Below, one piece after another: positions 13,318 to 55,060 of a DNA stretch of 64,000 nt. The notes under the pieces were generated by a model. That model made no database searches. It was not told where the DNA came from and saw nothing but the letters and a program-made list of their open reading frames with translations. The stretch lies in NCBI GenBank assembly GCA_031261985.1, contig JAISIR010000010.1:26049-90048 (forward strand), given 5' to 3'. The number at the start of each line of letters is the position of its first letter. Position 1 is the stretch's first letter. The DNA is from Clostridiales bacterium. GTDB lineage: Bacteria > Bacillota > Clostridia > Monoglobales > WRBX01. The translations under genes were made by a program, and so were the position numbers.

Positions 13318-16134
13318 ATGACTACAAACAAAAGAATAATATCGCTACTTATATGTTTGAGCATAATAACAAGTTTTGTACCCATGGCAAGGGCTGAGGC
13401 GGTTGAGGCTACTAATATTTACGTCGCAGCAGATGGGTCGGGCGATTTTACCACGGTAGAAGAGGCGATTGAGCATTTAAAACAGCTCGAGAGTAAGAAC
13501 GAAACTAAAAACTCACCAAAGAATATATATATTAAATCGGGTGATTATTTCCTTTCCGATAAAATTAGAGTCCCTGGTGGAAGTGGCGAGGGACAAGGAT
13601 TTACGTTTGAAGGCTATGGCAATGGCGAAGTTAATTTAATAGGTGGCGAAAAGCTAGATAAAGTCTTGGTTTCAAACGTTACAGATGGCTCTATATTAGA
13701 CAGAATTATCGATAGCAACGCACGCGATAAACTTTTGCAGATTGATGTTTCTAACTTAGGGATTGACTTTGGCGATTTAAAGAATGATGAATCGCAGCCT
13801 AAGCGCGAGATGCCGACTTTTTACATAGGCGAGACTCCGCTGTTGCCTGCAAGGTACCCTAACAAGATTGCGGGGAGCGAGTTTTTACACACCAAAGATG
13901 CCAAGGTTCTTGCTGACCCTGCAAAATCGAGTGCGCCTGGTTATTGGCCAGATTATATTGACCCTGTACAATTTTCGGTTAAAGAGGAATTAGAACGTTC
14001 TGACGAATGGACGGACGATACCTTTGAAAACGCTTACATTCAAGGTTTTTTCTGTGTCGATTACGAGTGCGAGATGATGAAGATTGCTGACTTTAACAAC
14101 GACACCAACACACTTACCACCACGGCGGGCTTTGAAAACCCAATTTACGATAACAAACGCTTTTACTTTTTAAATATGCTAGACGAGATAGATATGCCAG
14201 GCGAGAGCTATCTTGACGTCGATAGCCAAGTTTTGTATTTTATGCCGACAGATAATTTTAAGGCGGATGAAATTTATCTTTCTAACTTCAAGGGTGATAT
14301 GTTTACAATAGCCGACCAATCGTATGTAACAATTAGGAATATTAACTTTAAGTACTCGATAGGTAGAAGTCTTCAATTGCATAACGCGCATCATATAACT
14401 ATAGAAAATTGCACGTTTGCGCATACAGATTCTGACGCAATTGTTGTTAGTGCAAGGAATAGCGTTATACGCAATTGTGAAGTTTACGATACCAAAAGTG
14501 GCGGCATAGCTGTTTATGGGCATTATAATTTAATCGAGAATAATTTGATACACGATAACACCGCGCGAGGCACTAAAACTTATCAGAACTCGGTGTTATT
14601 AAACGGAAGCAATAATACGCTTAAAAACAATACTATCTACAACAACGCCCACCAAGTGATTGGCATTGGCGGAAGCAATATGGAAATTAGTTATAACGAA
14701 ATTTACAATGCCTGCCTAGAATCGGGCGACACGGGTGCGATTTATTATGGGCGCGACCCGTCTATCATGGGTATTAAGATTCACGATAATTACTTCCACG
14801 ATATTGGCAATGCCTACGTTACAAGCTATGGTCAGCAGTCGATTTTTTGCGATGATGGCTCGATTATGCCACATATTTACCATAATATTTTTGAAAACTC
14901 GGGCGGCGCGGCTATAAAGGCACATGGCGCGCAATTTGGATTAGTCGAGGACAATTTGTTTGTAAACGTTAACACCGCGGCGTATTTTCAATCGTGGGCG
15001 CAAAACAACAGCCAGCAGATTCAAAACCGTTGGTATGTTTGGGTGCATCAAAATTTGACGGATAATCAAAGTAGATATGATAAAGTTTTTGACCAGGCTG
15101 TTATGGAAGAGTACAAGGACTCTTATTTTAAAGCTTTTTGGGATTATGTTAAGGTTGAAGATTGGGATATGTTGACTGATGGCACGATAAACTCGGATGA
15201 AGATTTACAAAGGGTGGCTTTAGAGAAAGGTCCTGCGTACACCAATACTTTTAGGGATAACATTTTAGTCGACACTCGCTATGCTACGTCTGGCGGTAAT
15301 GGCACAGAAGAAAACACGATTGTTATGGATAAAAGCAAGATGAACGCGAACTTTAAGTTTAACAATGATGCTCTTTCAGAAATTCATGCGCAAAACCCAG
15401 ACTATACGAATTTCGATTTATCTAAAATTGGGTATATCGACCCGAACCCTCCTACTCCTCCGTCGTCTGGCGGTGGTGGTGGCGGTTCTCGTCCTGCGCC
15501 TATTTCCTCTCCTAGCCCTTCCCCTAGCCCAACGCCTGGTGCTAGCCCTGTTCCATCGCCCATACCCTTGCCCTCACCTCAGCCAAAGCCTATAACGTTT
15601 ACAGATACTTCTACCGATAATTGGTATTACAACGCGGTTAAATATGTTTTCGAGCGTAATCTAATGGTTGGCATGAGCGATACCGAGTTTGCACCCGATG
15701 TAAAGGTGACGCGCGGCATGATATCGACTATTCTTTGGCGGTTAGATGGTGAGCAACCCGTTTTGAACCAAGTGCCTTTTAAAGATGTAGCAAGCGATAA
15801 ATGGTACGCTAAAAGTATTACATGGATGAAGGATAACGCGATTTCGCTTGGGTATGAGGACGGCGAGTTTAGACCAGACAGGCAGATTACACGCGAGGAA
15901 ATGGCAACAATTATTGCAAGATATCTTGAGTTTAAAGGTGTTTTGGCGCAGGGCAACGCGGCGGGTTTTGCTGACGATTTCGATATATCTGCCTGGGCTA
16001 AAGATAGCACCGCACGACTTAAAACCCTTGGCATAATGGGTGGGCGCGGCGATAACGATTTTGACCCTAAGGCGCAAACATCGCGTGCCGAGACCGCGCA
16101 AATTTTGATGAATATTTTAGCAACCACTGACTAA
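13318..16134 (+). CDS. SLH-anchored right-handed beta-helix protein (probable polysaccharide-active enzyme)
   Basis: 938 aa with a signal peptide and beta-helix repeats (NCTFAH..., IRNCEVYD..., NNLIHDN...). It has a GGGGGG + PSPSPSP linker and three C-terminal SLH domains. It is a paralog of the 55255 gene (shared motif YFLN.LDEIDMPGESY). Confidence 0.9.
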   Translation: MTTNKRIISLLICLSIITSFVPMARAEAVEATNIYVAADGSGDFTTVEEAIEHLKQLESKNETKNSPKNIYIKSGDYFLSDKIRVPGGSGEGQGFTFEGYGNGEVNLIGGEKLDKVLVSNVTDGSILDRIIDSNARDKLLQIDVSNLGIDFGDLKNDESQPKREMPTFYIGETPLLPARYPNKIAGSEFLHTKDAKVLADPAKSSAPGYWPDYIDPVQFSVKEELERSDEWTDDTFENAYIQGFFCVDYECEMMKIADFNNDTNTLTTTAGFENPIYDNKRFYFLNMLDEIDMPGESYLDVDSQVLYFMPTDNFKADEIYLSNFKGDMFTIADQSYVTIRNINFKYSIGRSLQLHNAHHITIENCTFAHTDSDAIVVSARNSVIRNCEVYDTKSGGIAVYGHYNLIENNLIHDNTARGTKTYQNSVLLNGSNNTLKNNTIYNNAHQVIGIGGSNMEISYNEIYNACLESGDTGAIYYGRDPSIMGIKIHDNYFHDIGNAYVTSYGQQSIFCDDGSIMPHIYHNIFENSGGAAIKAHGAQFGLVEDNLFVNVNTAAYFQSWAQNNSQQIQNRWYVWVHQNLTDNQSRYDKVFDQAVMEEYKDSYFKAFWDYVKVEDWDMLTDGTINSDEDLQRVALEKGPAYTNTFRDNILVDTRYATSGGNGTEENTIVMDKSKMNANFKFNNDALSEIHAQNPDYTNFDLSKIGYIDPNPPTPPSSGGGGGGSRPAPISSPSPSPSPTPGASPVPSPIPLPSPQPKPITFTDTSTDNWYYNAVKYVFERNLMVGMSDTEFAPDVKVTRGMISTILWRLDGEQPVLNQVPFKDVASDKWYAKSITWMKDNAISLGYEDGEFRPDRQITREEMATIIARYLEFKGVLAQGNAAGFADDFDISAWAKDSTARLKTLGIMGGRGDNDFDPKAQTSRAETAQILMNILATTD

Positions 16135-16140
16135 CTATCA

Positions 16141-16270
16141 TTTGCTCTTTTTAGTTAAATTTCCCTTTTTGCTCATAACCTCACTGTGGCAGGCGTCAGC
16201 CTTGCCTTGCTCGGTTATTTCAAAAAGAAAAATTTATTCTAAAAATAGCTAAACGCTAGTTAATCAGTGG
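16141..16270. repeat. C-type intergenic repeat, copy 1
   Basis: About 130 bp similar to 27641-27770, sharing caggcg.cagccttgcctt.ctcg.tt ... ctaaacgc.agttaatcag. Confidence 0.7.
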
Positions 16271-16318
16271 TTACTATAGAACGTAGTTTAAAACGATGAG
16301 TAAATGAGGGAGCATACC

Positions 16319-27597: not shown

Positions 27598-27640
27598 GTG
27601 TACTTTCCTTTCGTTTTAAGTAACCGCTGAATAACTCCCG

Positions 27641-27770
27641 TTTGTGCTTTTTGCGTAAAATTCCGTTTTAGCGTGTCAGCCTCGAAAAGCAGGCGCCAGC
27701 CTTGCCTTTCTCGTTTCCTTCTAAAACAAAATTTTACCTCAAAAATCCCTAAACGCGAGTTAATCAGCGA
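27641..27770. repeat. C-type intergenic repeat, copy 2 (between uppS and cdsA)
   Basis: See 16141-16270: the same order of conserved blocks, in the same plus-strand orientation. Confidence 0.7.
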
Positions 27771-27807
27771 TTCCTTGAATTTTAGTTGGATTTTGAATTG
27801 GCAAGGT

Positions 27808-29156: not shown

Positions 29157-29276
29157 ACGCTTCGTCGGAGTAAATCCAACTTCGCTTCTAATTTATCATA
29201 AATAAGCTTCGTCGGAATAAATCCGACTTCGCTTCTAAAGTTATTATGATATTTTTGCGGACAAGCTCGCAAAAAT
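29157..29276 (-). repeat. A-type structured intergenic repeat (one extra hairpin-1 module plus a full unit), frr/pyrH gap
   Basis: acgcttcGTCGGAgtaaaTCCAACttcgcttc; then agcttcGTCGGAataaaTCCGACttcgcttctaaag...TTTTTGCGgacaagctCGCAAAAA. Confidence 0.8.
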
Positions 29277-29297
29277 TTATTAATCATTACACTAAAT

Positions 29298-30020
29298 TTA
29301 CTCACTATCGGGGCTGCTTACCATTGTTCCTACATCTTCGCCCATAACAGCTTTGTAGATATTCTCAGGATTATTTAAACCGAAAACAAGAATCGGCATT
29401 TTATTATCCATGCAAAGTGAGGTAGCAGTTGAGTCCATAACTCCTAACCCTTTATTAAGCACATCTAGGTAGTTAATGGCGTCAAACCTGACAGCATCGG
29501 AGTTAACATGAGGGTCAGAATCGTACACTCCGTCTACCTTTTTAGCAAGGAGTATAAGCTCGGCATCAATTTCGGCGGCACGTAAAGCTGCGGCTGTGTC
29601 GGTAGAGAAAAACGGGTTGCCGGTGCCACAAGCAAATATAACTGCGCGACCTTTTTTTAGGTGCCTAACCGCTTTGTTGCGGATATAAGGCTCGGCTATA
29701 GCACGCATTTCGATACCTGTTTGCACGCGAGTTTCGATACCCCGATGCTCAAGCGCATCTTGAAGTGCCAAAGAATTTATAACTGTAGCAAGCATTCCCA
29801 TGTGGTCGGCACGTGTTCTATCCATATGCACGCCGCTTCTGCCACGCCAAAAGTTGCCGCCGCCAACAACAATAGCAACGTTAACGCCAATATCTATGCA
29901 ACGTTTAATTTGGTCGGTAATTTTAGAGATAACTTCTTCGTCTAAGCCAAAGCCAGTTTTGCCAGCTAAAGCCTCGCCGCTAATTTTTAGCACAACGCGT
30001 TTGTATTTAGGGTTGCTCAT
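29298..30020 (-). CDS. pyrH: UMP kinase
   Basis: [12 protein letters not shown]...[10 protein letters not shown] is the canonical PyrH pattern. Confidence 0.95.
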
Positions 30021-30053
30021 ATAAATAATTCACTCCGAATTTAACTTTATAAA

Positions 30054-30239
30054 TACGCTGCGGCGCGAATGAATCGCACCTTCGCTCGTCGCAACTGCTT
30101 CACTTGGCTTGTTTATGCAAAAAATCACAAAAACGTCGCTTTTGTTCCGCGTTGCTCCTCTTATCCCACAAAACGGAAATCGCATTTTGTGGGAACCCTT
30201 TTGTTATTTGGATATTTTTGCGGACAAGCTCGCAAAAAT
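30054..30239 (-). repeat. composite A-type repeat with a B-type element inserted between its two hairpins (pyrH/tsf gap)
   Basis: A hairpin 1 (GGCGCGAatgaaTCGCACC), then a B block (cgtcgcaact...CCCACAAAAcggaaatcgcaTTTTGTGGG), then A hairpin 2 (TTTTTGCGgacaagctCGCAAAAA). Confidence 0.8.
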
Positions 30240-30270
30240 CTATTTCTTTATTAACTATTTTGCCGATGGA

Positions 30271-30912
30271 TTATAACATAGATGCAACTTCGTCAGCAAA
30301 ATTATCCTCGCGTTTTTCTAACCCTTCGCCACACTCAAACCTAACAAAACGACGAACGTTCATATTCTCGCCAACTTTTGCTATTTTTTCGGTAACTAAT
30401 TGCCCAACAGTGATATCTGGATTTTTAACAAAAGGTTGTTCTAGCAGGCAAATTTCTTTATAGAATTTGTCTATTCTGCCATTAACAATTTTCTCGGCGA
30501 TAGCCTCTGGCTTACCTTCGTTCATAGTTTGAGTTTTAAGAACTTCGCGCTCATGTTCTACTTCTTCTTCTGGGACTTCTTCACGACGGACATATTTAGG
30601 ATTAATTGCTGCAATGTGCATAGCAATATCGTGAGCAAGCTCTTGAACTTCAGCATTTTTAGCGGCAAAATCGGTCTCGGTATTAAACTCTAGCAAAACA
30701 CCAATTCGTGTTCCGTGGATATAAGACATAATTAAGCCTTCGCTTGCGATTCTGTCTGCCTTTTTAGCAGCTTTTGCAATGCCTTTTTCGCGCAGATAGT
30801 CGACGGCTTTATCCATATCTCCATTACTTTCGGTTAATGCTTTTTTACAATCCATCATTCCGCAACCTGTCATCTTGCGTAAATCGTTAACTAATGCAGC
30901 TGTAACTGCCAT
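30271..30912 (-). CDS. tsf: translation elongation factor Ts
   Basis: [26 protein letters not shown] is the canonical EF-Ts N-terminus. The ATG at 30912 follows RBS AGGAGAA; the longer ORF to 30996 runs into repeat DNA. Confidence 0.95.
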
Positions 30913-30988
30913 AGGTATTCTCCTTTTCTGGGTTAAATCGTTAAAACCTGCTAAACCGCTTTGCTTTTTTCCAATGTCGGCTCGGCAT

Positions 30989-31099
30989 CGTCGCAACTAA
31001 TTTCGCTATGCTTGTTTTGCTAAAGACGCAAAACTACGCCAACGCTCCATTTGTTGCTCCTTATTCCCACAAAACAAGAATCGTGTTTTGCGGGAGCCC
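30989..31099 (-). repeat. B-type intergenic repeat (tsf/rpsB gap)
   Basis: cgtcgcaact...gcttgtttt...ttgttgctccttattCCCACAAAAcaagaatcgtgTTTTGCGGGagccc parallels the insert in 30054-30239. Confidence 0.75.
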
Positions 31100-31188
31100 T
31101 CTATGCCCTTCGCCTCCATTGAAAAAATTTATCTAGCTTTTAACGCTTTAATAATTTATTTGTATTTTTATTTGTTTTATTTGTATAA

Positions 31189-32010
31189 TTACTCTACTAT
31201 TTGAGGTAAAATTTTCTCTTTTTTAGGAGCAGCTTTAGGTGCTTGCTCTTTAACCTCGGCAGGTGTCGCAACGTTATTGTTTGCGCTTGCTGCAGGTGTC
31301 GCTTTTGGTTCGGCTGGCATATCTATCATGCCCTCTTTAGCCTCTACAACTGCGTTGGCAACGGTATCTACAATTAGTTTAACCGCGCGGATAGCATCGT
31401 CATTTGCAGGGATAACATAATCTGCATCGTCTGGGTCGCAATTAGTATCTACAATTGCAACAACAGGGATATTTAGCTTGCGCGCCTCTTTAATTGCAAT
31501 ATGCTCTTTACGAGGGTCTACAACAAAAATTGCGCCAGGCAAATTCTTCATTTCTTTAATTCCGCCAAGGTACTTCTCTAGCTTAGCTTTTTCGTTTTTT
31601 AAATTAATTACTTCTTTTTTAGGAAGCAGATTAAATGTACCTTCTTCTTCCATTTTATCAAGCTGGAAAATTCTGTCGATACGTCTGCGAATTGTTTTAA
31701 AGTTAGTTAGCATTCCGCCTAACCAACGCGCATTAACATAAAACATGCTAGAACGCTCGGCTGCTGATTGAATAGCCTCTTGCGCTTGTTTTTTAGTGCC
31801 AACAAATAGAATGTTCTTGCCTTCTGCAACACAATCGCGGATAAAGCCATACGCTTCGTCAATTTTTTTAGAAGTTTTTTGTAGGTCGATGATATAAATA
31901 CCATTACGCTCGGTAAAAATATACTCGCTCATTTTAGGGTTCCACCTGCGCGTTTGATGCCCAAAGTGTACGCCTGCTTCTAGTAATTGCTTCATTTGAA
32001 CTACTGCCAT
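31189..32010 (-). CDS. rpsB: 30S ribosomal protein S2
   Basis: [27 protein letters not shown]. The ATG at 32010 follows RBS AGGAGGA. The C-terminal tail is A/P/K-rich. Confidence 0.95.
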
Positions 32011-32226
32011 AAATATTTTCCTCCTATTGTTTTTGCAAGTTGCGTTATTCACGAGTTGCACAAAATATTGTGCAATACCCTAGTTAAAACGCCCTCGCCA
32101 CTGACGAAATAGAAACTTAAAAATTTTTAAGCAACAAGAAATTTTTCGTCTGTTTAATTTAACCTATAATATTTTACCACAAGATTAGTATGAAGTCAAG
32201 CTTTTTTTGATTTGAATTACATTTAA

Positions 32227-32301
32227 TACGCTTCGGCGCGAATAAATCGCACCTTCGCTTCTAAAGTTATTTAGATGTTTTTGGCGACAAGCTGCCAAAA
32301 A
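32227..32301 (-). repeat. A-type structured intergenic repeat (ydcF-like/rpsB gap)
   Basis: acgcttcGGCGCGAataaaTCGCACCttcgcttctaaag...TTTTTGGCgacaagctGCCAAAAA. Confidence 0.8.
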
Positions 32302-32313
32302 CTTGTTTCCATA

Positions 32314-33057
32314 CTAAATCCCAACTATCCAAGTTTTGACCACTGCCACGCATTCGCGCAAATAGTTAAGCGGAGTAATATACCACTCGGTTTTAGCACC
32401 GATATATTTAGCATCTAGCCCTATTTTTTTAGCCAGAATCATGGCGCGGTACGCATGAAAATCGTTTGTAATTACTACTACTTTATAGTTATTTGCGCCA
32501 AAAACATTATCTAAAATTTGCTTGCTATAGTTTAAGTTTTCGTAAGTCGAGGTGGCTTTTTCTTCCAATATAATAGAATCTTCCGCTACTCCACGAGTCG
32601 TCAAATACTTTTGCATAGCGCGCGCCTCGGTTATATCCTCTTGCAAACCTTGAGCTCCCGAGACTACTATTTTTGCGTTTGGGTTATGTTTTGCATAATC
32701 TATAGCTTCATCTAGCCTGCGAGCCAAGGGAATAGTTACCTGCTCGCCCCTGATGCCCGCGCCTAACACAATAACCGCATCTTGGGTATAATCGGTTGTT
32801 TTTAAGTTACCATAAACCGCCAAAAATGTAGCAAGCGATGTAGCTGCTAGCATAATTATTATTAATGCAATTAAGATAGGCTTATGCGATATTACAAAAT
32901 GCAAGCAAATGCCTAAACATATTATGCCCAAACTTAAAATTGCACAGGCAATAATGCCAAAGTTAAAGTTAGTTATGGTTGCCATTAACATGGTATAACC
33001 AAGGAAAATTAAGCCGATGGCAATTATTATTAGTTTAACGGTTTTCATATAATTCAC
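32314..33057 (-). CDS. YdcF/ElyC (DUF218) family membrane protein
   Basis: N-terminal TM helices are followed by the DUF218 pattern AVIVLGAGIRG...VVSGAQG...EARAM..YL...ATSTYEN. Confidence 0.8.
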   Translation of the reverse strand: MNYMKTVKLIIIAIGLIFLGYTMLMATITNFNFGIIACAILSLGIICLGICLHFVISHKPILIALIIIMLAATSLATFLAVYGNLKTTDYTQDAVIVLGAGIRGEQVTIPLARRLDEAIDYAKHNPNAKIVVSGAQGLQEDITEARAMQKYLTTRGVAEDSIILEEKATSTYENLNYSKQILDNVFGANNYKVVVITNDFHAYRAMILAKKIGLDAKYIGAKTEWYITPLNYLRECVAVVKTWIVGI

Positions 33058-33077
33058 TCATTCTTTTAAGCGCGACA

Positions 33078-34031
33078 TTACAAAATGCGTTTATGGAAAG
33101 GTCTGCGCCAGGAATACCCAAGGCGTTTGAAATTAATTTTAAGACTATTAAAAAAACTTTTTTTAGGCTTAAAACGTTTGATAAGTTTTTTGCGAGTTTG
33201 AAGTCCTTCTTTTACTCCGCGAAAATATACATCATGCAGGCGATTTTTTCTATACCGTCGCAACATTTTTTCGCGTCCGCGATTGATAAAATACCCGTGC
33301 CAAAACCTGCTCCAGGCTGATAAATTTTTATAAATAGTCCATACGTTATTACGCGCTTCTAGGCGAACATAGGTATCATCTACCGCCTCGGCATTTGCAC
33401 CTAGGCGATACACAAGCGATTCGGGACATAGGATTGTTTTGTAGCCCGCACGCCAACCGCGCCACGAGATATCGATATCTTGCCAAACATTAAAGTAGTG
33501 CTCGTCATATCCGTTTAAGTTAAGGAATATTTTTTTGTTATATAGCGCGCCAGACATAGGTGCTGCAAACACGCGCTTAGGCTTTAATTTTGCTACCTTT
33601 TTACCGCCATACATGCCAAACGCCATGCCACCCAAGGTGTACCCATACCCCGCTTGCTTTGCAACGGCTAAGTTATGAGGATACACAAGCACAGGGCAAA
33701 CAGAAAAAATGGTAGGGTCGGCATCGGCTACTTTTAACATGCTCTCGAGCCAGGTTTTTTCTACAACTGTATCGGGCAGCACGATGCAAATATACTCGCA
33801 ATTTGTTTTAACGGCTACATTATTTACTACCACGCCGATGCCCTTATTCTCGGTATTGGTAATCACTTCTACCTTAGGGAATTTCTCGGTTACAAGGGCG
33901 ACACTATCGTCCATAGAAGCGTTATCTATAAAAGTAATTTTAAAATCTTTATACGTTTGGTTTTGAATAGAATCCAAGCATTTTTCTAAAGTTTTTTCGC
34001 CATTTGTATTTGGCAAAATTATATGAACCAT
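33078..34031 (-). CDS. family 2 glycosyltransferase
   Basis: The GT-A pattern ILPNTNGEKTLEKCLDSIQNQTY...FIDNASMDDS is present. The ATG at 34031 follows RBS AAAGGGG. Confidence 0.85.
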   Translation of the reverse strand: MVHIILPNTNGEKTLEKCLDSIQNQTYKDFKITFIDNASMDDSVALVTEKFPKVEVITNTENKGIGVVVNNVAVKTNCEYICIVLPDTVVEKTWLESMLKVADADPTIFSVCPVLVYPHNLAVAKQAGYGYTLGGMAFGMYGGKKVAKLKPKRVFAAPMSGALYNKKIFLNLNGYDEHYFNVWQDIDISWRGWRAGYKTILCPESLVYRLGANAEAVDDTYVRLEARNNVWTIYKNLSAWSRFWHGYFINRGREKMLRRYRKNRLHDVYFRGVKEGLQTRKKLIKRFKPKKSFFNSLKINFKRLGYSWRRPFHKRIL

Positions 34032-34062
34032 ATTTACGCCCCTTTTTCGATTTTTCATAAAA

Positions 34063-34138
34063 ACACGCTTCGGCGTGAATGAATCACGCCTGCGCTTCTA
34101 AAGATAATATGGTATTTTCGGCGACAAGCTGCCGAAAA
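34063..34138 (-). repeat. A-type structured intergenic repeat (UPF0104/GT2 gap)
   Basis: acgcttcGGCGTGAatgaaTCACGCCtgcgcttctaaag...TTTTCGGCgacaagctGCCGAAAA. Confidence 0.8.
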
Positions 34139-34150
34139 TCTGTTTTTATT

Positions 34151-35209
34151 TTAGTCTTGAAGCTTAGTTTTATCGTTAATGTTTATCCCCTCTTTTGCGA
34201 TAATAACAAACCCAGTTATAGTAATAGGGATATATTGTACCATGTGAAGCACTAGCGACATTGCCATTGCGTGGCTAGGCTCTGCTCCGAACATTATGAA
34301 TCCTTGTTGCGCCGCTGCTTCTAGCGTTCCAAAATTACCGGGCGCGGCAGGGATAATGATGACTAGATTTATTAACACAACAATTAGTAGTGACATTAAA
34401 AGTTGGTATTGCATGCCAAAAGCGTAGCTTATAATTAGCACAGTTAAAAACTCGATAAACCATATGCAAAAGGAATATCCTATAACTTTTGCTAGTTGAG
34501 GCATCGATTTTATGCAATTAAAACCATCTACAATATTATCTATAAAGTTTCGTGCAAATTTAGGGACGATTTTTTCGATTAGTTTTTTATTTTTGGCAAT
34601 TAGAACTAGAACTATTAAGCCGACAACCAAGCAGGCTGCAAGGATAGAGGTGTACGCCCAAGATAGCACTTGATGGAAAATCATAACCAGACAAAGCAGC
34701 ACAAAAAGGGTGACGACATCTATAACTCGCTCGATTATAACGGTGCTAAAAAGCATGGCTTTGCTTGCGTTTAGTCGCACGCCGGCGAATGCGCCACGAA
34801 GGATATCGCCGATTCTGAGCGGAAGGATGTTATTAGTTGCGTAGCCCATTGCAAGTGGCGCGAAAACATTGTACATGGTTGCTTTTTTACGCGTGGTTAT
34901 ATTTGAAGTTGCGTTTGAGGATGCGTTTAAATTTTCATCGTTGGAGGTTGCGTTTTGCGATAAATCGTTAGGCACAGATTCTTTCGATTCATCGCTAACA
35001 TTTAAGTTTGGGAGCATAAGCTCGCGCCAACGCAAAGTTCTAAAATAGAAGCCAGAGAAATGAACAAGCATTCCAAGAACTACAATTAAATACTGGGCTT
35101 GCGATAGTGCATTTTTAAACTCTACCCAATTTATATTTTTAAATAGCCAAAACAGTAGCAGAATGCTGATTATAATGCCAAGTATACTTACCAGAGTTTT
35201 TTTATTCAT
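34151..35209 (-). CDS. flippase-like / lysylphosphatidylglycerol-synthase TM-region (UPF0104) membrane protein
   Basis: A polytopic membrane protein with a conserved RWR.L motif after TM2 and the PAAPGNFGTLEAA motif. It carries an N/S-rich low-complexity loop insertion. Confidence 0.75.
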   Translation of the reverse strand: MNKKTLVSILGIIISILLLFWLFKNINWVEFKNALSQAQYLIVVLGMLVHFSGFYFRTLRWRELMLPNLNVSDESKESVPNDLSQNATSNDENLNASSNATSNITTRKKATMYNVFAPLAMGYATNNILPLRIGDILRGAFAGVRLNASKAMLFSTVIIERVIDVVTLFVLLCLVMIFHQVLSWAYTSILAACLVVGLIVLVLIAKNKKLIEKIVPKFARNFIDNIVDGFNCIKSMPQLAKVIGYSFCIWFIEFLTVLIISYAFGMQYQLLMSLLIVVLINLVIIIPAAPGNFGTLEAAAQQGFIMFGAEPSHAMAMSLVLHMVQYIPITITGFVIIAKEGININDKTKLQD

Positions 35210-35255
35210 ACGTAACCTCTTTATTTTCTTTAGTTGAAATCATTTGGATATCCAC

Positions 35256-35705
35256 TTAAATTTCTATATTAGCAAAAGCATTTTCGACATCTTCCTGCTC
35301 ATTTGCATCAAATAATAGCTCAATTTTATCGTCGGAGGTTGTGATTAGTTTTGGATATATATTGCTATTTTTTAGGGCTTTGTAAATTTTAGCCGCCACG
35401 CCAGAAGTCGTCATAAACTTAGAGCTTTGCAAGACAAATTTGGTGTTATCGGCGTTAATTTCTACCAATAAATTAGGGTGTTTGCTTTTAAGCTCGCCTA
35501 TTGTGGCAACAACCTTTGGCACTTCGTCGTTGTTCGTGGTAAAGATTACCGCAATTTTATCTTTATATGGCAAAGTTTGGCTTATCATATCAACAACTAT
35601 TTTATTATCACCAATTGCGCTCCAAACTTCGCTGACGGCAACAATATCGTTGGGGATATTATCTAAAATTATTAAAGTTTCATCTTTTATAGTAGTAATA
35701 TTCAT
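35256..35705 (-). CDS. ACT-domain protein (aspartokinase regulatory-domain-like)
   Basis: 149 aa with a two-ACT-like layout (VSEVWSAIGDNKIVVDMISQT ... GVAAKIYKALKNSNI). It lies next to the dapB-dapA-asd genes. Confidence 0.6.
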   Translation of the reverse strand: MNITTIKDETLIILDNIPNDIVAVSEVWSAIGDNKIVVDMISQTLPYKDKIAVIFTTNNDEVPKVVATIGELKSKHPNLLVEINADNTKFVLQSSKFMTTSGVAAKIYKALKNSNIYPKLITTSDDKIELLFDANEQEDVENAFANIEI

Positions 35706-35734
35706 GGTATCGCCTCGTTTTTTCTCTTAAAAAT

Positions 35735-36505
35735 CTAGCAAGTGCCGCTAACTAAATCGCTCATTGCATAAATGCCCGTTGGTTTACCCGCAATAAATTC
35801 ACCTGCACGCAAGGCTCCGTTAGCAAAAACTTCGCGGCTGTTTGCGCTGTGGGTAAGTTCGATATTCTCGTTGTTCCCTGCAAATAAAATAGTATGCTCG
35901 CCCACTATAGTCCCACCACGGATGGAAGACATGCCGATTTCTGAGGTATCACGTTTTGCGCGGCGCGAATGACGGTCGAACACCAAGTGCGAGTCAATCT
36001 CATTGTTTCGCACGCTCATAATTTCGTCGGCAAGCAAGACAGCGGTGCCAGATGGCGCATCGAGTTTTTGGTTGTGGTGCCTCTCGATAATTTCGATATC
36101 GTAATCTAGCCCTAGAACCTTAGTCGCCTGTTTGGCTAGGTTGGCAAGAAGGCTTATACCTAGCGACATATTAAATGAAAAGAAAATAGTGGCGTTTTGG
36201 CTAGCTTCTTTAATCTGCTCGACCTGTTCGGCGGTGTAGCCCGTTGTAGCAAGCACAAGGGGGATTGAATTTTTAGTAGAGAACTCCAGCAATCCGTTTA
36301 GTGAGCTAGGGTTAGAAAAATCGATAATACAATCGGCATCGTTCGGAGCGTCAGAAATATGTTGCACAATTTTAAAGGCAGAGTCGTTGACGCAAAATTG
36401 ATGGTCGACGCCGCAAACAATGTTATATTTAGGACTTTCGCTAGCTAGGCGCGTTATTGTTTTGCCCATGCGCCCACAGCAACCAGATAGAATTATGTTG
36501 GTCAT
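35735..36505 (-). CDS. dapB: 4-hydroxy-tetrahydrodipicolinate reductase
   Basis: GCCGRMG (NAD fold) and ERHHNQKLDAPSGTA are DapB signatures. The ATG at 36505 was chosen; the longer ORF runs into repeat DNA. Confidence 0.92.
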   Translation of the reverse strand: MTNIILSGCCGRMGKTITRLASESPKYNIVCGVDHQFCVNDSAFKIVQHISDAPNDADCIIDFSNPSSLNGLLEFSTKNSIPLVLATTGYTAEQVEQIKEASQNATIFFSFNMSLGISLLANLAKQATKVLGLDYDIEIIERHHNQKLDAPSGTAVLLADEIMSVRNNEIDSHLVFDRHSRRAKRDTSEIGMSSIRGGTIVGEHTILFAGNNENIELTHSANSREVFANGALRAGEFIAGKPTGIYAMSDLVSGTC

Positions 36506-36538
36506 GTTATTTTTTCCTTTTGTTCTATTGTATAAAAG

Positions 36539-36611
36539 CACGCTTCGGCGGAATGAATCCGCCTACGCTTCTAAAGCTAATATGATATTTTCGGCGACAA
36601 GCTGCCGAAAA
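36539..36611 (-). repeat. A-type structured intergenic repeat (dapB/dapA gap)
   Basis: acgcttcGGCGGAatgaaTCCGCCtacgcttctaaag...TTTTCGGCgacaagctGCCGAAAA. Confidence 0.8.
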
Positions 36612-36629
36612 TTTATTCACATCAAATTA

Positions 36630-42399: not shown

Positions 42400-42540
42400 A
42401 AAGTTATCACCTAAATTGTTATTTTTTATAATTTATTCTAACCTATGATACCACAAAAAAAATAATTTGTAAAGTAGTAATTTAAATTTTTTTGCGCAAA
42501 CTAATTTATAGAACAACTTACGATAGAGGAGTAATGATAT

Positions 42541-42870
42541 ATGAAGGATAATTTTAATAGTAATAGTTTATCACATAATAATGAAAAAACTAAGGATTTA
42601 AATGTAGAAAGCTTTGATAATCTGCCAAATTATGGTGATTTTGGGGACGGTATGCCTTTTGGGAACAAGGACTCGTCTAGCGATAAAAAGTATGGTTCGC
42701 GCCCATTTGATGAGTATGCTGACGATGTGAAAAACCGTGGTGAGTTTGTGTCTACCTTCCATTATTGGCTATCACCTCAGCAACAAGAAGATAAAGCAAA
42801 AGAGTTGGCAGAAGCAGGGAAAACTTCTGATAATTTTAAAGTTGATGGCAATAATGGTATGAAAAATTAG
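42541..42870 (+). CDS. hypothetical small acidic/low-complexity protein
   Basis: 109-aa ORF with RBS AGAGGAG; no family was recognised. Confidence 0.55.
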   Translation: MKDNFNSNSLSHNNEKTKDLNVESFDNLPNYGDFGDGMPFGNKDSSSDKKYGSRPFDEYADDVKNRGEFVSTFHYWLSPQQQEDKAKELAEAGKTSDNFKVDGNNGMKN

Positions 42871-42955
42871 TTCTAAATGTATAATTTATTATTTTATGGT
42901 AAAACTAACTTGTAGATAAATTTTTATATTCCATATTTTTTAAGGAGAGTTTAAA

Positions 42956-43177
42956 ATGGATACAGTTGCATTAATTTTAGCAATTTTAGGTGCGCTTAAT
43001 TGGGGCTCTATTGGTCTATTTGGTGTCGATTTTATTAGCAGCATGTTTGGCGGAGCAGAGACAGCAATAGCACGAATCATCTACTCTTTAGTAGGTTTAG
43101 CAGGGCTTTGGTGCATAACATTACTATTCCGCGAGAACGAGCAAGAGAATGAAAATCGTGTGCGTAGCGAAAAATAG
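42956..43177 (+). CDS. DUF378 family small membrane protein
   Basis: ALILAILGALNWGSIGLFGVDFI...IIYSLVGLAGL matches DUF378. RBS AAGGAGA. Confidence 0.8.
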   Translation: MDTVALILAILGALNWGSIGLFGVDFISSMFGGAETAIARIIYSLVGLAGLWCITLLFRENEQENENRVRSEK

Positions 43178-43198
43178 TTTTAGTCTTTAATATCAAAA

Positions 43199-43234
43199 GC
43201 ATTCCCTTTGTAATTTGCAGCGGGAATGTTTTTT
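43199..43234 (+). terminator. intrinsic terminator
   Basis: GCATTCCC-loop-GGGAATGTTTTTT. Confidence 0.7.
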
Positions 43235-43308
43235 ATGTGCATTTATAGTCCATTTTTGTAAAGCTTTAAAATATTTTCAATAAATATCACTTTTTTTAGT
43301 AAAAACTA

Positions 43309-43338
43309 TTGACAAACTATATATAAATGTGATATAAT
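43309..43338 (+). promoter_or_regulatory. sigma-A promoter for rpmG-secE-nusG
   Basis: TTGACA (43309-14), an 18-nt spacer, then TGaTATAAT (43330-38). Confidence 0.65.
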
Positions 43339-43457
43339 CACAAAGTAACCTTGTGAGGGGTTATTTTTTTGGAGTGCTAATTTTTATTTTTTTGATTAGT
43401 TTCTAAAAATATATGGTTAAGTTACTTCAAAAAATTTTATTTTAAGGAGTTATAAAA

Positions 43458-43610
43458 ATGGCTGATGCTATAAAGTTACAGTGTACAAACGAAGGTTGCG
43501 CACACTTTAAGTACACGTTTAAAAACAAAAAAAATACACCGGATAGAATGGAACTTAAAATATTCTGCCCTAATTGTAATGCCCATACTTTGCATAAAGA
43601 AACTAAATAG
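43458..43610 (+). CDS. rpmG: 50S ribosomal protein L33 (Zn-ribbon form)
   Basis: This gene is not in the ORF track (50 aa): [59 protein letters not shown]; conserved position before secE. Confidence 0.9.
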
Positions 43611-43724
43611 TTTAATCGCTTAATATGTAAAAAATGGAGTTTCTACCGATGTTTACTTAATGAATAAATGGTTTTTGTTAATCGTTTATCATTCTTTAAA
43701 CATTACGAAAGGATTGTCTTTATC

Positions 43725-46219: not shown

Positions 46220-46265
46220 GCATTTGCTGCCTTAGCTCAGTCGGTAGAGCACTTCCTTGGTAAGG
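46220..46265 (+). pseudogene. orphan 5'-half copy of tRNA-Thr(GGU), with 6 nt of upstream flank
   Basis: 46 nt (gcatttGCTGCCTTAGCTCAGTCGGTAGAGCACTTCCTTGGTAAGG) are identical to 46365-46410. The match ends in the 3' side of the anticodon stem. Confidence 0.85.
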
Positions 46266-46370
46266 CTTCAAATTCTCCTCGAATTTGACGACAGTTTTGC
46301 AAGTTTTGACGACAGTTTGTGTAAATCGTCCTTGCATTGATACACTAAAAACCGCATATTTCCAGCATTT

Positions 46371-46446
<76 letters not shown>

Positions 46447-46634: not shown

Positions 46635-48092
46635 CTAACTCTCTTTCGACTCATTTAATATTTTTTCTATATCGGATTTTACTCCACCAGATAAATCTCT
46701 TGAATCACCAATTTTGTGACATTTAAAACCATTAAGGTCAAAAGGAGGTTTATCGTTTTCTTCTTTAGGTTGGTAATAAAACACCATTTTCCCTAAACCC
46801 ACATTTTTTAATGCGTAGCCGACCTCAACCATAACATTATGACGAGCTCCAGTTAAATCTGCAACAAAAATGTCGCAATCTGATATTTCTCTATACATAA
46901 CACTTCTAATATCAAATGTTCCGCCTTCTTCCGTTCCCATATCTATGGGGACTAGGTTTAATTCGTTCGCTATTTCTTTCATTTGGTTTATTCTGTGATT
47001 TGCTTGTGATAATTCTGGTTCGCTTGTAGGATACCAACGGGCAATGAACATTTTCTTAGGGGCGTTTTCATAAATCTTATCATATATACTAATGATATCA
47101 TCAGTCTTTAGATTCGTTGCCTCCGAAATATGATTTTTTGCTATCCATTTAATAAAGTGTGAATATTTTTCCCAATTCACAATTTTATAATAAACCAATG
47201 ACTCAATTATGTAAACATTATTACTCTTAGCTACTATTCCGTTTTCACGAATTACATTTTCGATATCAACCAGTGTTTCTTTTATAGTTTGAACGGCGTT
47301 CTCTGGGGCAAGTTTCTCTATATCTAATAAGCGTCTAAATAAATTTAGGAAGAAAGAATACCTTTTTTCATAAATGAATTCTTTAATTTTAGGGAATACA
47401 TCAAAATTCACCTTTCTATCCCCTATTAGAATATCACGAGTGAATTTATAGCACAATCCAAAAGAAGGGTCTTCAAGAAGATTATCATCGGAAAAGGTGT
47501 TAAACCCTTCTATAATTGTTTTAATATTAAGTTCTAATTCAAGTGGAATTTGTTTAGAATTAATATTATGGAATATAGCTCTTGAATGTCTTTCAAGTTC
47601 AGTATTTGTAGGAAACAATATAATACAAAACGGTATGAGCATATCTGGGTTTGCATAATCGGCTGCACTTAATCTATGATTTCCATCTATTCGTAAGATT
47701 TTTACTTTATCTTCTTCGAAATCAAGTTGTGCAATTTTTAACGGTTTGTTATCGCCGACTAATTTGTTATTTTGTTTATTAAAATTTACCGTTATGTCTC
47801 CAATATTAGTTGCCCTTGACCCTTTTTCGCGAGAATTAACAGCTTCCAAAAGCATTTCGAAAGGTTGAATATTTTCGTCTAAGTTAAAAGACATTGATAA
47901 AACCACTTCGGGGAAATACTTATAATCACCTTTTGTTAAAAAGTTGATCATTTCATTCGCATGTTCTCCCAATAAATCACGTTGAATATCGGGATTCACT
48001 TCAGATATTTCTGCCAATTCTTTAATGGTTGCTAAACCACGAAGGCAAAGATAATTATCCATAATTGTTGATAAAATGCCATTCATTTTCAT
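46635..48092 (-). CDS. fusion protein: N-terminal DGQHR/ParB-like (DndB-family-like) domain + C-terminal nucleoside 2-deoxyribosyltransferase-like (NDT/DNPH1/TIR-like) domain
   Basis: 485 aa. The N-terminal motifs are NPDIQRDL...YFPEVVLSM...LRIDGNHRLSA. The C-terminal motif is CDIFVADLTGARHNVMVEVGYAL..GLGKMVF. RBS AGGAGG; the start lies 15 nt after the hsdR stop. Family assignments are from memory. Confidence 0.6.
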   Translation of the reverse strand: MKMNGILSTIMDNYLCLRGLATIKELAEISEVNPDIQRDLLGEHANEMINFLTKGDYKYFPEVVLSMSFNLDENIQPFEMLLEAVNSREKGSRATNIGDITVNFNKQNNKLVGDNKPLKIAQLDFEEDKVKILRIDGNHRLSAADYANPDMLIPFCIILFPTNTELERHSRAIFHNINSKQIPLELELNIKTIIEGFNTFSDDNLLEDPSFGLCYKFTRDILIGDRKVNFDVFPKIKEFIYEKRYSFFLNLFRRLLDIEKLAPENAVQTIKETLVDIENVIRENGIVAKSNNVYIIESLVYYKIVNWEKYSHFIKWIAKNHISEATNLKTDDIISIYDKIYENAPKKMFIARWYPTSEPELSQANHRINQMKEIANELNLVPIDMGTEEGGTFDIRSVMYREISDCDIFVADLTGARHNVMVEVGYALKNVGLGKMVFYYQPKEENDKPPFDLNGFKCHKIGDSRDLSGGVKSDIEKILNESKES

Positions 48093-48107
48093 CTGTTATT
48101 CCTCCTT

Positions 48108-51100
48108 CTACACCAGCCCGAAGAACTTCTCAAAGAATATCGTTAGTTTTTCAATAACTGTTGTTTTCTTAACAGTTCTGTTATTCTCGCCAAATAGCGA
48201 TGTAGGCGGAAGGATTTTATCAATGCCTGTGCCTGTTGTTTTAAGCTCGCCTGCGCGGAATGAATTATCAATAAACTTGTGTGTTTCTTCTTTTTTTAGA
48301 TTTTCGAATTCAATAATTGCTCCTAAATCCTGTTCCTTTTGCTCTTTTACAAATTCCACCCATTCTGCCTCAACTTTTGTATTAATATTCATACGCTCAA
48401 TGAAATTTGTAATAAGCTCTTTTTTGCTACGAAGCTCTAAGCTTGAGCCGATAGCCTTGTCGATCGTTTCTAAAATTTCTTTATCCGTGCAATGACTATC
48501 GTGATATTTAGTAACAAGCATTAGAATATAGTCAATGTTTATATTAACCTGCTTGATAAGCTCCATTTCAAAGACAATATCGTCGTTTATTATCTCTTTT
48601 TTGGCATCAATATTCTTTCTGTATTTCTGATAAAGGTCGATGTATTTACCGTGATAATCTTGGAATTCACGTTCAGTTAAAATTTCATTGTCCTTGTAAT
48701 CATCGAACGACACGAGAATATTTCTAAGACGCAAAATAGCAGAATATAGCTCGATAAATTCTTTTTCACTTTCCTCGCCTATAATCTCGCCAAAATTTTT
48801 AAGGTCTTCTATAAGCTCCGAATATTTATCATAATAATGCTTAAAAGGTTTTAAAAGCACAATTCCTGCCGCATCTTTATCGCCAAATAGACTAATCGCC
48901 TCATTGGTTTCTTGTTCTAAATTACGAAAGCATACGATATTACCAAAGCGTTTGACGCTATTTAATATTCTATTGGTTCGTGAAAACGCTTGAAGTAGTT
49001 TGTGATATTTTAAGTTTTTATCAACCCAAATGGTGTTTAGCGTCGTTGCATCAAATCCCGTCAAAAACATATCTACAACAATCAAAAGGTCAATCTGACG
49101 GTTTTTCACTCGCATAGACAAATCTTTATAATAGTTTTGGAATTTATCGCTTGAAGTGTCGTAATTTGTATTGAACATTGCGTTATAATCAGCTATTGCA
49201 CCTTCTAGAAAATCACGGCTAACTTTGTCTAAACCTTCGGTCGTAAATTCTTCATCTGGCTCTTCTTCGTTGGCTGAGTAGCTAAATATTGTCGCAATTT
49301 TTAGGTTATGCTCGTGGTTTTTGAACTCGTTATAATACCTTTTCGCCATATCAATCGAACTTACAGCAAAGATAGAGTTAAATCCGTTGACGGTCTTTTC
49401 CTCTTTAATCTCATCAACTTCTTTTTTCTTATCTTCTGCCAGTTTCTCAATATTTGTTATAACTCTGTGTTGGAAATGCGAAAGATTTTGGTTGCGATAA
49501 GTTTTATCGTTGAAATTTTTTATAATGTACTCCACGGTATTGCTTATAAGCTGGTTATCGCTTAATACCGCTGCGGTGTCTATCGCACTCACTTTTTTAT
49601 CAATAATTCCGTCTTTTATTCTAAATCGCTCTATGTAATCAACTTTAAAGGGCAGAACATTGCCGTCGTTTATTGCGTTTACGATTGTGTAGGTGTGCAG
49701 CTTATCTCCGAAGGCTTGCTCGGTTGTTCTAAGCATTGGGTTGCCTGATGTGCTGCTATTGGGTGCAAAAATAGGAGTGCCTGTAAAACCGAATATGTGA
49801 TAATTCTTAAAATTCTTTGTTATTCTAAGGTGCATATCGCCAAATTGCGAGCGATGGCATTCATCGAATATCAAAACAATATGCTTCTTAAAAACCTCAT
49901 GTCCTTTGTTTCGTCCAATAAAAACATCAAGCTTTTGAATGGTTGTAACTATAATTCTGGTATCATCTGATAATTGTTTTTCAAGAACTTTTGTAGAAGT
50001 GTTGCCATTGGCTGCTCCTTTGCAAAAACGGTCGTATTCTTTCATTGTTTGGTAATCAAGGTCTTTTCTATCAACGACAAATAGCACCTTATCAATATAA
50101 TCAAGCCCTGTTGCAAGTTGAGCCGTCTTGAATGATGTCAGAGTTTTGCCCGAGCCTGTTGTATGCCAAATATAACCGCCAGCTTCGATGCCGCCCATTT
50201 TTTTATAATTGTTAGAACACTCAATGCGGTTTATAATCTTCTCAGTTGCGGCGATTTGATACGGACGCATAACCAAAAGTAGCTGCTCGCTTGTGAAAAC
50301 GCAATACTTCGTTAAAATATTTAGTATTGTGTGTTTAGCGAAAAAAGTTTTGGTAAAATCGACTAAATCGGTTATTAGTTTATTCTCGCCATCTGCCCAA
50401 TAGCTTGTGAATTCAAACGAATTGCTTGTTTTCTTGGAGCGTGACGCTCCACCCGTTTTGACTTCATAAACATGAGAAAATCTTGTTGTGTTGCTATAAT
50501 ATTTCGTGTGAGTTCCGTTGGATATAACGAAAATCTGAGCATACTCATACAGACCACAACCTGCCCAAAAGCTATCGCGCTGGTATCTATCAATTTGATT
50601 AAATGCTTCTTGAAGCGGCACGCCACGCTTTTTCAACTCAATATGCACAAGCGGCAAACCGTTGACGAGTATTGTTACATCATAACGATTATCATAAGTT
50701 CCAGAGTTTTCGTATTGGTTGATAATCTGCAAGTGGTTGTTATGTATGTTTTTCTTGTCTATTATAGAAATGTTTTTTGTTATTCCATTATCAAGGCGAA
50801 AAGCATATCTATAATCTTCTTGGACTTTGCGTGTTTTCTCAACAATTCCCTCATTTTTATTGATAAGGTATTCATTGCAAAAACGCTGCCACTCTCTATC
50901 ATAGAAAGTATAATCGTTTAACCGTTCAATTTGCTTCCGCAAGTTTGCAAGCAAATCAGCCTCGGAGGAAAGAGCAACAAAATCATAGCCTTGTATTCTA
51001 AGACGCTCAATAAAATCTTTTTCCAGCTCCGCCTCGCTTTGATAAGCCCCCGATTGCTTTTCAGTCGGGACATATTTTGCAACGACGGTGGACTCGTTTT

Positions 51101-51128: not shown

Positions 51129-51726
51129 GCTGTTTTCAGCTCCTTAAAATCTAATAATTTGTTCCGATAGTATTCATATTGTTTTCGTCTTGCCTCAATT
51201 TCAGCAGGAAGCCCTTGGGTTATGTCAGTTGTCAGTGCGTCGAATTTATCGAGAATTTCGACAATACGCTCTTGGGTTGCAAGAGGAGGGATGGGTATTT
51301 GAAGTTCTCTAATAAACGACAAATTGGCTATAGCTAGTTTTCCGCCGCTTGTTAGTGCAATAAATTGAGGGAATAGAATTTGACAAGCATAAAACAAATA
51401 ATACTTATCCAATACTTTTTCGTTTTTCGGATATAATGCGGCGACATTTTGATTTGTTGCTGCTTCAAAGTTTAAAAAAGCTATTTTCCCAATTGTTGCT
51501 CCTACCATTGCTATTAGTGTTGTACCGATAGGAAGTATTTTCGCCGATGAATTACTTAGACCGCTTTCAGTAATATATTCAGTGACTTCATCTACATACT
51601 TTTGATTCTTGCAGACGGTTGAACCAAGCCATTTCACAGTGCCATTCTCCCAATATTCTGATACACCTCGTTTAGGAGTACCTCCAGCGCTTACGCAACA
51701 TACTTCCCCGAGGCTACTCCATAATA

Positions 51727-51734
51727 CCCCCCCC
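51727..51734 (-). repeat. G8 homopolymer (C8 on the plus strand) at the hsdS frameshift point
   Basis: Read directly: ataataCCCCCCCCgttttc. Confidence 0.95.
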
Positions 51735-51795
51735 GTTTTCCAGTTTTTGGAAATTCAAGAGAGAATTACGATAGTATTCATATTGTTTTTTCCGC

Positions 51796-51831
51796 GCTGT
51801 AAGCTCTGCTGTAAGCTCTGCTGTAAGCTCT
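51796..51831 (-). repeat. 3 perfect tandem copies of a 12-bp unit in the hsdS central conserved region (encodes TAEL repeats)
   Basis: gctgtaagctct x3 on the plus strand; it translates to [14 protein letters not shown]. Confidence 0.95.
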
Positions 51832-53403: not shown

Positions 53404-53448
53404 ATTGCTCTCCTTTGCTATTAGGTCGAAACCCCCGAATTAAGTTTA

Positions 53449-55008: not shown

Positions 55009-55060
55009 TGCCATCCTCCTTGAAAATCCAGCAATATTCCTCATTGTTTCAACTATGAAC

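Follow-up and report, generated by a model that had tools for sequence, protein, structure and literature searches.

A modular two-hairpin repeat family in the intergenic gaps of a clostridial housekeeping gene string

A window of 64,000 nucleotides from an uncultured Clostridiales bacterium (contig JAISIR010000010.1, positions 26,049 to 90,048; positions below are counted from the first letter of this window) contains a family of small intergenic repeats of about 75–90 bases, each of which folds into two hairpins on the strand that encodes the surrounding genes. The family is real and well delimited, and it was previously uncatalogued. Its copies occupy five gaps in a string of co-directional minus-strand genes, all within one 7.5-kb stretch of this single genome. 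In kind, the element resembles the repetitive extragenic palindromic (REP) sequences and the BIMEs built from them, the BOX repeats, and the unnamed stem-loop sequence families of other bacteria. Our favoured reading, held with moderate confidence, is that it is a hairpin repeat of the REP/BOX kind, modular and specific to its lineage, that was amplified locally and is co-transcribed with the operons in which it lies, rather than a novel sort of RNA regulator. Probably it acts there at most as a non-terminating pair of mRNA stem-loops.

Two hairpins with maintained pairing

Read along the minus strand, the sense strand of the flanking genes, a unit runs as follows: 5′-AAAYAR, hairpin 2 (H2), a linker, two nucleotides, hairpin 1 (H1), GAAGCGU, and RYUUUUAUR-3′. 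H2 has a 9-bp stem and an invariant 8-nt loop, AGCUUGUC. The linker is 23 nt long and A/U-rich, and its 3′ end is the invariant CUUUAGAAGCG. H1 has a stem of 6–7 bp closed by the loop UUYAU, and a second GAAGCG follows it. The two hairpins fold independently, with no conserved closing helix between them. The ends of the element probably reach a few A/T-rich bases past the limits given in Table 1.

The pairing of both stems is clearly maintained. On the minus strand, the seven H1 pairs of the six modules are 100% paired; two pairs are altered on both sides, one pair has been co-deleted in three modules, and a U.G pair occurs in three cells of one column. Likewise, the nine H2 pairs of the five copies are 100% paired, with four pairs altered on both sides. 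None of 500 column shuffles of H2 matched the observed values, and when the partner strand is slid out of register, pairing drops to 14–58%. Altogether there are about six to seven independent compensated events, counting the co-deleted pair, together with about two wobble events and no broken pair. Stem columns are variable in 13 of 32 cases and unpaired columns in 10 of 46, which is a trend only and not significant (p = 0.08).

Predicted folding energies of whole units are −24 to −30 kcal/mol for the sense strand (z of −3.3 to −5.2) and −21 to −29 kcal/mol for the antisense strand (z of −2.9 to −4.2), and the single hairpins account for −5 to −11 kcal/mol each. In every copy, H1 gains 0.9–4.4 kcal/mol of stability on the sense strand relative to the antisense one.

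A preliminary description of this DNA had reported compensatory stems with conserved loops, a single orientation within strings of housekeeping genes, and plus-strand C-A mismatches that turn into G-U pairs on the minus strand. All of this is borne out, the mismatches being the three U.G cells of H1. The stems that it quoted are right as well, although module 1a, the additional H1 module in the pyrH/frr gap, has the plus-strand loop GTAAA, which departs from its consensus, and the H2 stem really has nine pairs. Its count of six gaps needs correction to five gaps plus the extra half unit, module 1a. The same family is indeed present in each of the five, but the copy between tsf and pyrH is interrupted, which had been overlooked.

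The limits of the family are sharp. Across the 64 kb, the core words CGCTTCTAAAG and GACAAGCT are confined to these copies, where they occur four and five times, respectively, and the copies are 77–94% identical to one another by self-BLAST. The four intact units served to build a covariance model, R1, a tool that the preliminary description had suggested, and the model was applied with filters off to both strands of the window. It returns the intact units at 99–107 bits (E of about 1e-20) and all family matches at E values from 1e-21 to 7e-3; the next matches are the palindromic H2 on the opposite strand and then noise at E > 0.1, so that no further credible copy is found on either strand.

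Searches beyond the window tell a similar story. The Rfam search proposed at the outset identifies no family: at gathering thresholds only two tRNAs pass in the whole window, and at E ≤ 5 nothing in positions 27500–37000 matches the element, for which reason a known RNA family was rejected. A 19-base core pattern gave nine chance matches without hairpins in 185,579 GTDB representative genomes, 14 of the same sort in the JGI metagenomes, and none in IMG/VR, and blastn against the PLSDB plasmids and the INPHARED phages found no match to the element. The lineage is an isolated one within Clostridia: the nearest available relatives are distant, the best PyrH being 83% and the best DapB 56–58% identical among 5.8 billion proteins. 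R1 finds no match in the recovered loci of these distant relatives; the closest one with a recovered locus has a pyrH-frr spacer of 42 nt, against 169 nt here, and this spacer lacks the element. The absence from public collections is due in part to poor sampling of the lineage, and it does not on its own prove a recent origin.

Repeat-like behaviour and comparison with known systems

Several features of the copies suggest a repeat that multiplies locally more than a dedicated regulator. The pyrH/frr gap holds an extra H1 module in tandem, module 1a, which matches its neighbour in unit 1b at 42 of 46 positions, and the other four loci have one H1 each; the duplication was established by sequence comparison, and a tandem-repeat finder did not report it. 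Moreover, similarity is highest between adjacent copies, in the manner of stepping stones: copies 4 and 5 agree at 44 of 47 and 39 of 46 positions (93% by self-BLAST), the H2 parts of copies 1 and 2 at 41 of 44, and the H1 parts of copies 2 and 3 at 36 of 41 (94% by self-BLAST). Copying or conversion over short distances, from one neighbour to the next, would be expected to leave such a pattern. The copies fill five of six consecutive large gaps in a window with 28 gaps of at least 60 nt, a clustering for which our own combinatorial estimate is P ~0.001.

The element is also entangled with other repeats. Copy 2 is split by a member of a second family, repeat B, which displaces the otherwise invariant linker sequence UUUAGA; the H1 half accordingly lacks the linker core (TCTAAA on the plus strand), and the stretch made of the linker remnant and H2 remains 93% identical to copy 1. 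Repeat B is about 115 nt long and has a further copy at about 30985–31100, in the rpsB/tsf gap, with 72–80% identity between the two (self-BLAST pairs 30086–30199 with 30988–31100 at 72%). On the sense strand, it contains an internal hairpin, CCCACAAAA...UUUUGUGGG, and a longer inverted repeat, TTTTTTCAATGGAGGCGAAGGGCAT / ATGCCGAGCCGACATTGGAAAAAA, brackets the rpsB/tsf-gap copy. Repeat B has no match in Rfam. A third family, repeat C, is an imperfect long palindrome of about 160 nt at 16118–16276 and 27615–27775 (73% identity, z of about −6.2 to −6.5). One copy follows a gene for an SLH/beta-helix protein; the one at 27615–27775 occupies the gap between uppS and cdsA in the same housekeeping string. 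The shape of repeat C is like that of MITEs (miniature inverted-repeat transposable elements), and its sole Rfam match, to a plant miRNA precursor, is far below threshold, with 25.7 bits where the gathering score is 245.

On defining features the element falls outside REP, MITE, BOX, attC, and every Rfam family, yet the likenesses are instructive. The REP and BIME (PU) sequences of enterobacteria are, like it, extragenic imperfect palindromes in operons that keep their pairing and lie near upstream stop codons, and they are known to act as 3′-exonuclease barriers that stabilise the upstream mRNA. However, the 5′ GT(A/G)G head of REPs, which are palindromes of 20–40 nt, is absent before both hairpins on both strands, the flanks being ACGCTTC/CGCTTC and A/T runs; H1 and H2 differ from each other and are arranged in tandem rather than as inverted REPIN doublets; no RAYT was seen in the window; and the host belongs to a Clostridia lineage and is not a proteobacterium. 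REPs have many dispersed copies; those of the element are extragenic, at five loci within 7.5 kb of the 64 kb.

The BOX elements of S. pneumoniae, with their boxA-boxB(n)-boxC layout, are likewise small, modular intergenic repeats of Firmicutes in which one module, corresponding to H1 here, is sometimes in tandem. In both cases co-transcription with the neighbouring genes is predicted to yield stem-loops, and BOX elements too are clustered and nested with other repeat families. Modular boxB arrays, clustering, and mutual insertion have been described for the pneumococcal BOX, RUP, and SPRITE repeats (PMC3049150). In contrast, our element has no sequence similarity to BOX and no terminal pairing of the boxA/boxC type, no related insertion sequence (IS) is known for it, and its five copies lie within 7.5 kb, whereas BOX has more than 100 dispersed copies. 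That stem-loop repeats of this general sort are numerous is apparent from a survey of 40 genomes, C. perfringens and C. tetani included, which yielded 92 families, 67 of them undescribed (PMC2267715).

Similar in setting are the stem-loops that serve selective RNA processing and stabilisation (SRPS) in operons of Clostridium cellulolyticum. These are non-terminator structures that follow genes at their 3′ ends, set transcript ratios, and protect upstream segments from 3′ exonucleases (PMC4423207). Our H2 is likewise a non-terminator stem-loop at the 3′ ends of open reading frames (ORFs), without a U-tract, in operons of a Clostridia lineage. The reported SRPS energies of −6.6 to −31.8 kcal/mol (PMC4423207) overlap those of the element, both per hairpin and per unit. 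The SRPS structures differ in being locus-specific and in having mapped processing sites, whereas the element is one family in five gaps.

With MITEs and the palindrome-associated transposable elements (PATEs) derived from IS200/IS605, the element shares the properties of being short, A/T-rich, highly structured, non-coding, and multi-copy. The PATE likeness extends to two hairpins near the ends on one strand and to the absence of a target-site duplication. PATEs have a conserved 4–5-nt target 5′ of the left end; here a weakly conserved motif, A-A-W-Y-A-R, lies directly 5′ of H2 in all five copies. The differences are that terminal inverted repeats do not rise above background, that the end hairpins are dissimilar, and that neither a TnpA nor another transposase is encoded in the window. 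Integron attC sites were also considered; the element is without the R″/R′ core sites (RYYYAAC...GTTRRRY), its neighbours are core housekeeping genes, and the window has no integrase.

Interpretation and rival explanations

Two properties of the element frame its interpretation. The sense strand has no terminator: only 2–4 U residues occur in the 10 nt after H2, and GAAGCGU separates H1 from the U run that follows, so the element would be transcribed within the mRNAs. A sense terminator or attenuator was therefore rejected, an alternative hairpin, CACGC-CGAA-GCGUG followed by U5, being formed in copy 4 only. On the antisense strand, H2 is terminator-like in four of the five copies, and the U-rich tail is found there only. 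A sense promoter within the element was likewise rejected, since a 10/12 match exists in module 1a only and the other candidate −10 boxes lack the final T and are inconsistently spaced. So was a CodY box suggested by AATTTTC...GAAAAT in H2, whose half-sites are 14 nt apart and altered in three copies.

We propose that the copies would have spread by short-range copy-and-insert or duplication, each being seeded from its neighbour. Inside essential operons, the non-terminating polarity may be the only one tolerated, given that the U-rich tail of H2 lies on the antisense side; such a filter against termination would produce strict orientation without invoking an RNA function. The stems may have been kept paired because the formation of hairpins, in single-stranded DNA during copying, in mRNA, or in both, is needed for persistence. 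A DNA hairpin could form on the coding strand, the lagging-strand template for replication-co-oriented genes; alternatively, pairing might be restored by template-switch correction of quasi-palindromes. The biology of IS200/IS605 elements and quasi-palindrome mutagenesis provide the background for these DNA-hairpin steps. In the mRNA, the two moderately stable hairpins would most likely behave like the SRPS stem-loops and present a 3′-exonuclease barrier after the upstream stop codon and a 5′ structure before the next cistron, and a modest tuning of segmental mRNA stability would be a side effect rather than the work of a dedicated regulator.

Some observations weigh against the REP/BOX-like reading. 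The evidence spans 64 kb of one genome, and the shared polarity is weak evidence, as the copies lie in one gene string (1 in 16 by chance). The roughly 50 ORFs of the window include no transposase, RAYT, TnpB, integrase, or IS; no direct repeat flanks any copy as a target-site duplication would; and complementarity between the flanks, at 5–8 of 10 positions, equals that of random A/T-rich intergenic 15-mers. The invariant loops and linker could mark a specific binding factor, which would favour a regulatory role. To these may be added the linker itself: partition-function folding gives it an unpaired probability of 0.31–0.52, against an average of 0.45–0.49, and lends no support to an exposed, cleavage-prone linker.

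The preliminary description had favoured the view that the element is a selected RNA structure. The structure, its polarity, its position within operons, and the lack of a sense terminator all stand, but selection on RNA is not established, because all copies are paralogous, from one 7.5-kb stretch of one genome; because compensated stems are also expected of DNA-hairpin repeats and of template-switch correction; because the G.U argument comes down to three cells of a single column, or about two events; and because the nested insertion, the duplicated module, and the presence of a third repeat family are the behaviour of parasitic or neutral repeats. Covariation here cannot separate RNA selection from the maintenance of a DNA hairpin. 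The fallback offered in that description, a REP/MITE-like mobile hairpin, is closer to the evidence, though without a GTAG head, significant terminal inverted repeats, or a target-site duplication.

An alternative that we regard as unlikely is that the element is a dedicated cis-acting punctuation of operons, in which a protein or RNase reads the loops (AGCUUGUC and UUYAU) and the linker CUUUAGAAGCG and so processes or stabilises the polycistronic mRNA at defined intercistronic points. It would thereby fix in what ratio the translation and envelope genes are expressed, and only the shape of the stems would be under constraint. It draws on the complete sense-strand pairing, with compensated changes and U.G as the sole exceptions, on the greater sense-strand stability of H1 in every copy, on the invariance of the loops and the linker core beside 13 variable stem columns of 32, and on the lack of a sense terminator, and it has a precedent in the stem-loop-governed processing of Clostridium operons (PMC4423207). 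Placement is regular too, 11–31 nt after stop codons and, in four of five copies, 28–34 nt before start codons, but this spacing is also the trivial outcome of inserting about 90 nt into spacers of about 40 nt. Against punctuation stand the lack of an Rfam match and of any copy in the public collections scanned, orthologous conservation that is not demonstrated, the non-significant excess of stem variation over unpaired variation, and the small number of events behind the G.U argument. Copy 2 has lost its linker core to the nested repeat, and what copy 3 precedes is not a cistron but an independent promoter of rpsB. That a factor reading the loops and CUUUAGAAGCG cuts and caps the asd-dapAB-envelope-rpsB-tsf-pyrH-frr transcript or transcripts, much as at organellar intercistronic processing sites but in a deep-branching Clostridia lineage, is very doubtful. 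The element might otherwise be a non-autonomous derivative of a transposon of the Y1/HUH type, which moves as single-stranded DNA. It would then be either a PATE-like relic left by IS200/IS605 ends or a REP-like substrate on which a RAYT encoded elsewhere in the genome acts, and this we consider quite unlikely. Hairpins recognised in the lagging-strand template would fix the orientation relative to replication and would explain the missing target-site duplication. Two subterminal hairpins on the same strand with conserved loops and stems constrained in shape only, the lack of significant terminal inverted repeats, the strict polarity, and the weakly conserved A-A-W-Y-A-R, which could be a target or cleavage motif, all fit. 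So does the fact that wobble is tolerated on the coding strand: where genes are co-oriented with replication, this strand serves as the lagging-strand template, on which transposases of the IS608/ISDra2 type act. Yet no Y1 transposase, RAYT, or TnpB is encoded in the window, H1 and H2 are dissimilar whereas the end hairpins of IS200/IS605 elements are normally alike, a GTAG/CTAC-type REP head is missing, and the tight clustering is atypical of REPs. The direction of replication, moreover, is unreadable here, as GC skew tracks the gene strand and is uninformative as a guide.

A function on the plus strand is highly improbable. There, H2 with its T-rich tail would stop antisense or convergent transcription, or the element would be an antisense RNA gene of about 75 nt preceded by a YATAAA box. 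The terminator-like H2 of four of the five copies (a 10-bp stem with 5–7 U in the next 10 nt) and a YATAAA-like box 2–4 nt to the left of ACGCTTC in five of six modules speak for it. However, C.A mismatches weaken H1 on this strand, to −2.7 and −6.5 from −5.2 and −10.9 kcal/mol; the stem is rich in U-A at its base, and the U-tracts are broken up; no −35 box is conserved, and the putative −10 box mostly lacks its last T; and no local plus-strand gene requires termination.

Should the REP/BOX-like reading hold, the element would lengthen the list of uncatalogued stem-loop repeat families, with an example from a Clostridia lineage that is poorly sampled (nearest DapB 58%). It is also a caution that compensated stems among paralogous copies alone are no proof of a functional RNA, and it is of mild use as a marker and as a natural experiment on hairpin cassettes of about 90 nt placed between essential genes such as rpsB, tsf, pyrH, and frr. 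If it were instead a processing signal, it would represent a compact, portable intercistronic module for operon stoichiometry in Clostridia.

Coordinates, neighbouring genes, and other features of the window

Table 1. Copies of the two-hairpin repeat and associated features (window positions, plus-strand coordinates)
Feature	Position	Strand	Details
Locus c1, pyrH/frr gap	29157–29276	−	Module 1a, then unit 1b
Copy 1a, solo extra H1 module	29157–29191	−	Stem 29164–29169/29175–29180; sense loop UUUAC; R1 30.7 bits, E 1e-4
Copy 1b, full unit	29204–29276	−	H1 stem 29211–29216/29222–29227; R1 103.3 bits
Copy 1b, hairpin 2	29251–29276	−	Stem 29251–29259/29268–29276; loop 29260–29267
Copy 2 (c2), tsf/pyrH gap, split	30055–30239	−	H1 and H2 halves parted by a foreign insert of ~116 nt
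Copy 2, H1 half	30055–30086	−	Stem 30062–30068/30074–30080; R1 22.7 bits
Foreign insert in copy 2, repeat family B	30087–30202	−	Nested between H1 and H2
Copy 2, linker remnant and H2	30203–30239	−	Stem 30214–30222/30231–30239; R1 42.8 bits
rpsB promoter, consensus-like	32171–32199	−	TTGACT-17-TGnTAAAAT; 10/12 matches and TG extension
Copy 3 (c3), full unit, SanA/ElyC-like/rpsB gap	32228–32302	−	R1 99.1 bits
Copy 4 (c4), full unit, flippase-like/GT2 gap	34065–34139	−	R1 99 bits
Copy 5 (c5), full unit, dapA/dapB gap	36540–36612	−	R1 106.6 bits

All copies have one polarity. The neighbouring genes are, by NCBIfam, frr, pyrH, tsf, rpsB, and genes for SanA/ElyC-like, GT2, flippase-like, and ACT proteins, followed by dapB and dapA, in agreement with the identities assigned to them previously. 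Measured on the sense strand, H2 starts 11–31 nt after the upstream stop codon: 21 nt past that of pyrH (copy 1b), 31 nt past that of tsf (copy 2), 11 nt past those of the SanA/ElyC-like gene (copy 3) and the flippase-like gene (copy 4), and 17 nt past that of dapA (copy 5). The next start codon lies at 28–34 nt in four of five copies, namely, 28 nt from module 1a to the ATG of frr, 34 nt from the H1 half of copy 2 to that of pyrH, about 33 nt from copy 4, and 34 nt from copy 5 to that of dapB at 36505. Copy 3 is followed by the rpsB promoter, which belongs to the context and lies outside the repeat. Only copy 4 is abutted, at its 75-nt core, by a perfect 9-nt inverted repeat (ATAAAAACA / TGTTTTTAT; 34057–34065/34141–34149).

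The public gene call for DapB (244 aa) begins 12 codons downstream of the in-frame ATG at 36505 (window positions 36469–36505). A good ribosome-binding site accompanies the upstream ATG, and starting there brings back the G-x-x-G-x-x-G motif for dinucleotide binding at the N-terminus; this longer start is probably the correct one.

Elsewhere in the window, an exact 46-nt duplicate pairs 46220–46265 with 46365–46410 and comprises 6 nt of flank and about 40 nt of the 5′ part of tRNA-Thr(GGU) (46371–46446). The partial copy thus lies 145 nt upstream of the intact gene, beyond which comes a type I restriction-modification locus (46635–55062) that includes a gene of the RhuM family. The duplicate may be what an integrative element or a rearrangement left behind.

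Two very large minus-strand ORFs at 4312–8346 and 8531–13090 (1344 and 1519 aa) are built of periodic repeats of 69/159 nt, rich in motifs of the D-x-D-G-D type, and judging from these sequences they look like large, repetitive surface or calcium-binding proteins. The same region contains an internal 1788-nt duplication (10557–10980 versus 12345–12768). Finally, a divergent region of 1.27 kb (42400–43667), between a pgm-like gene on the minus strand and secE-nusG-rplK-rplA on the plus strand, holds small ORFs only. Among these are a hydrophobic ORF of 73 aa and, at 43458–43610, a 50-aa ORF with four cysteines that resembles ribosomal protein L33 in position and motif.

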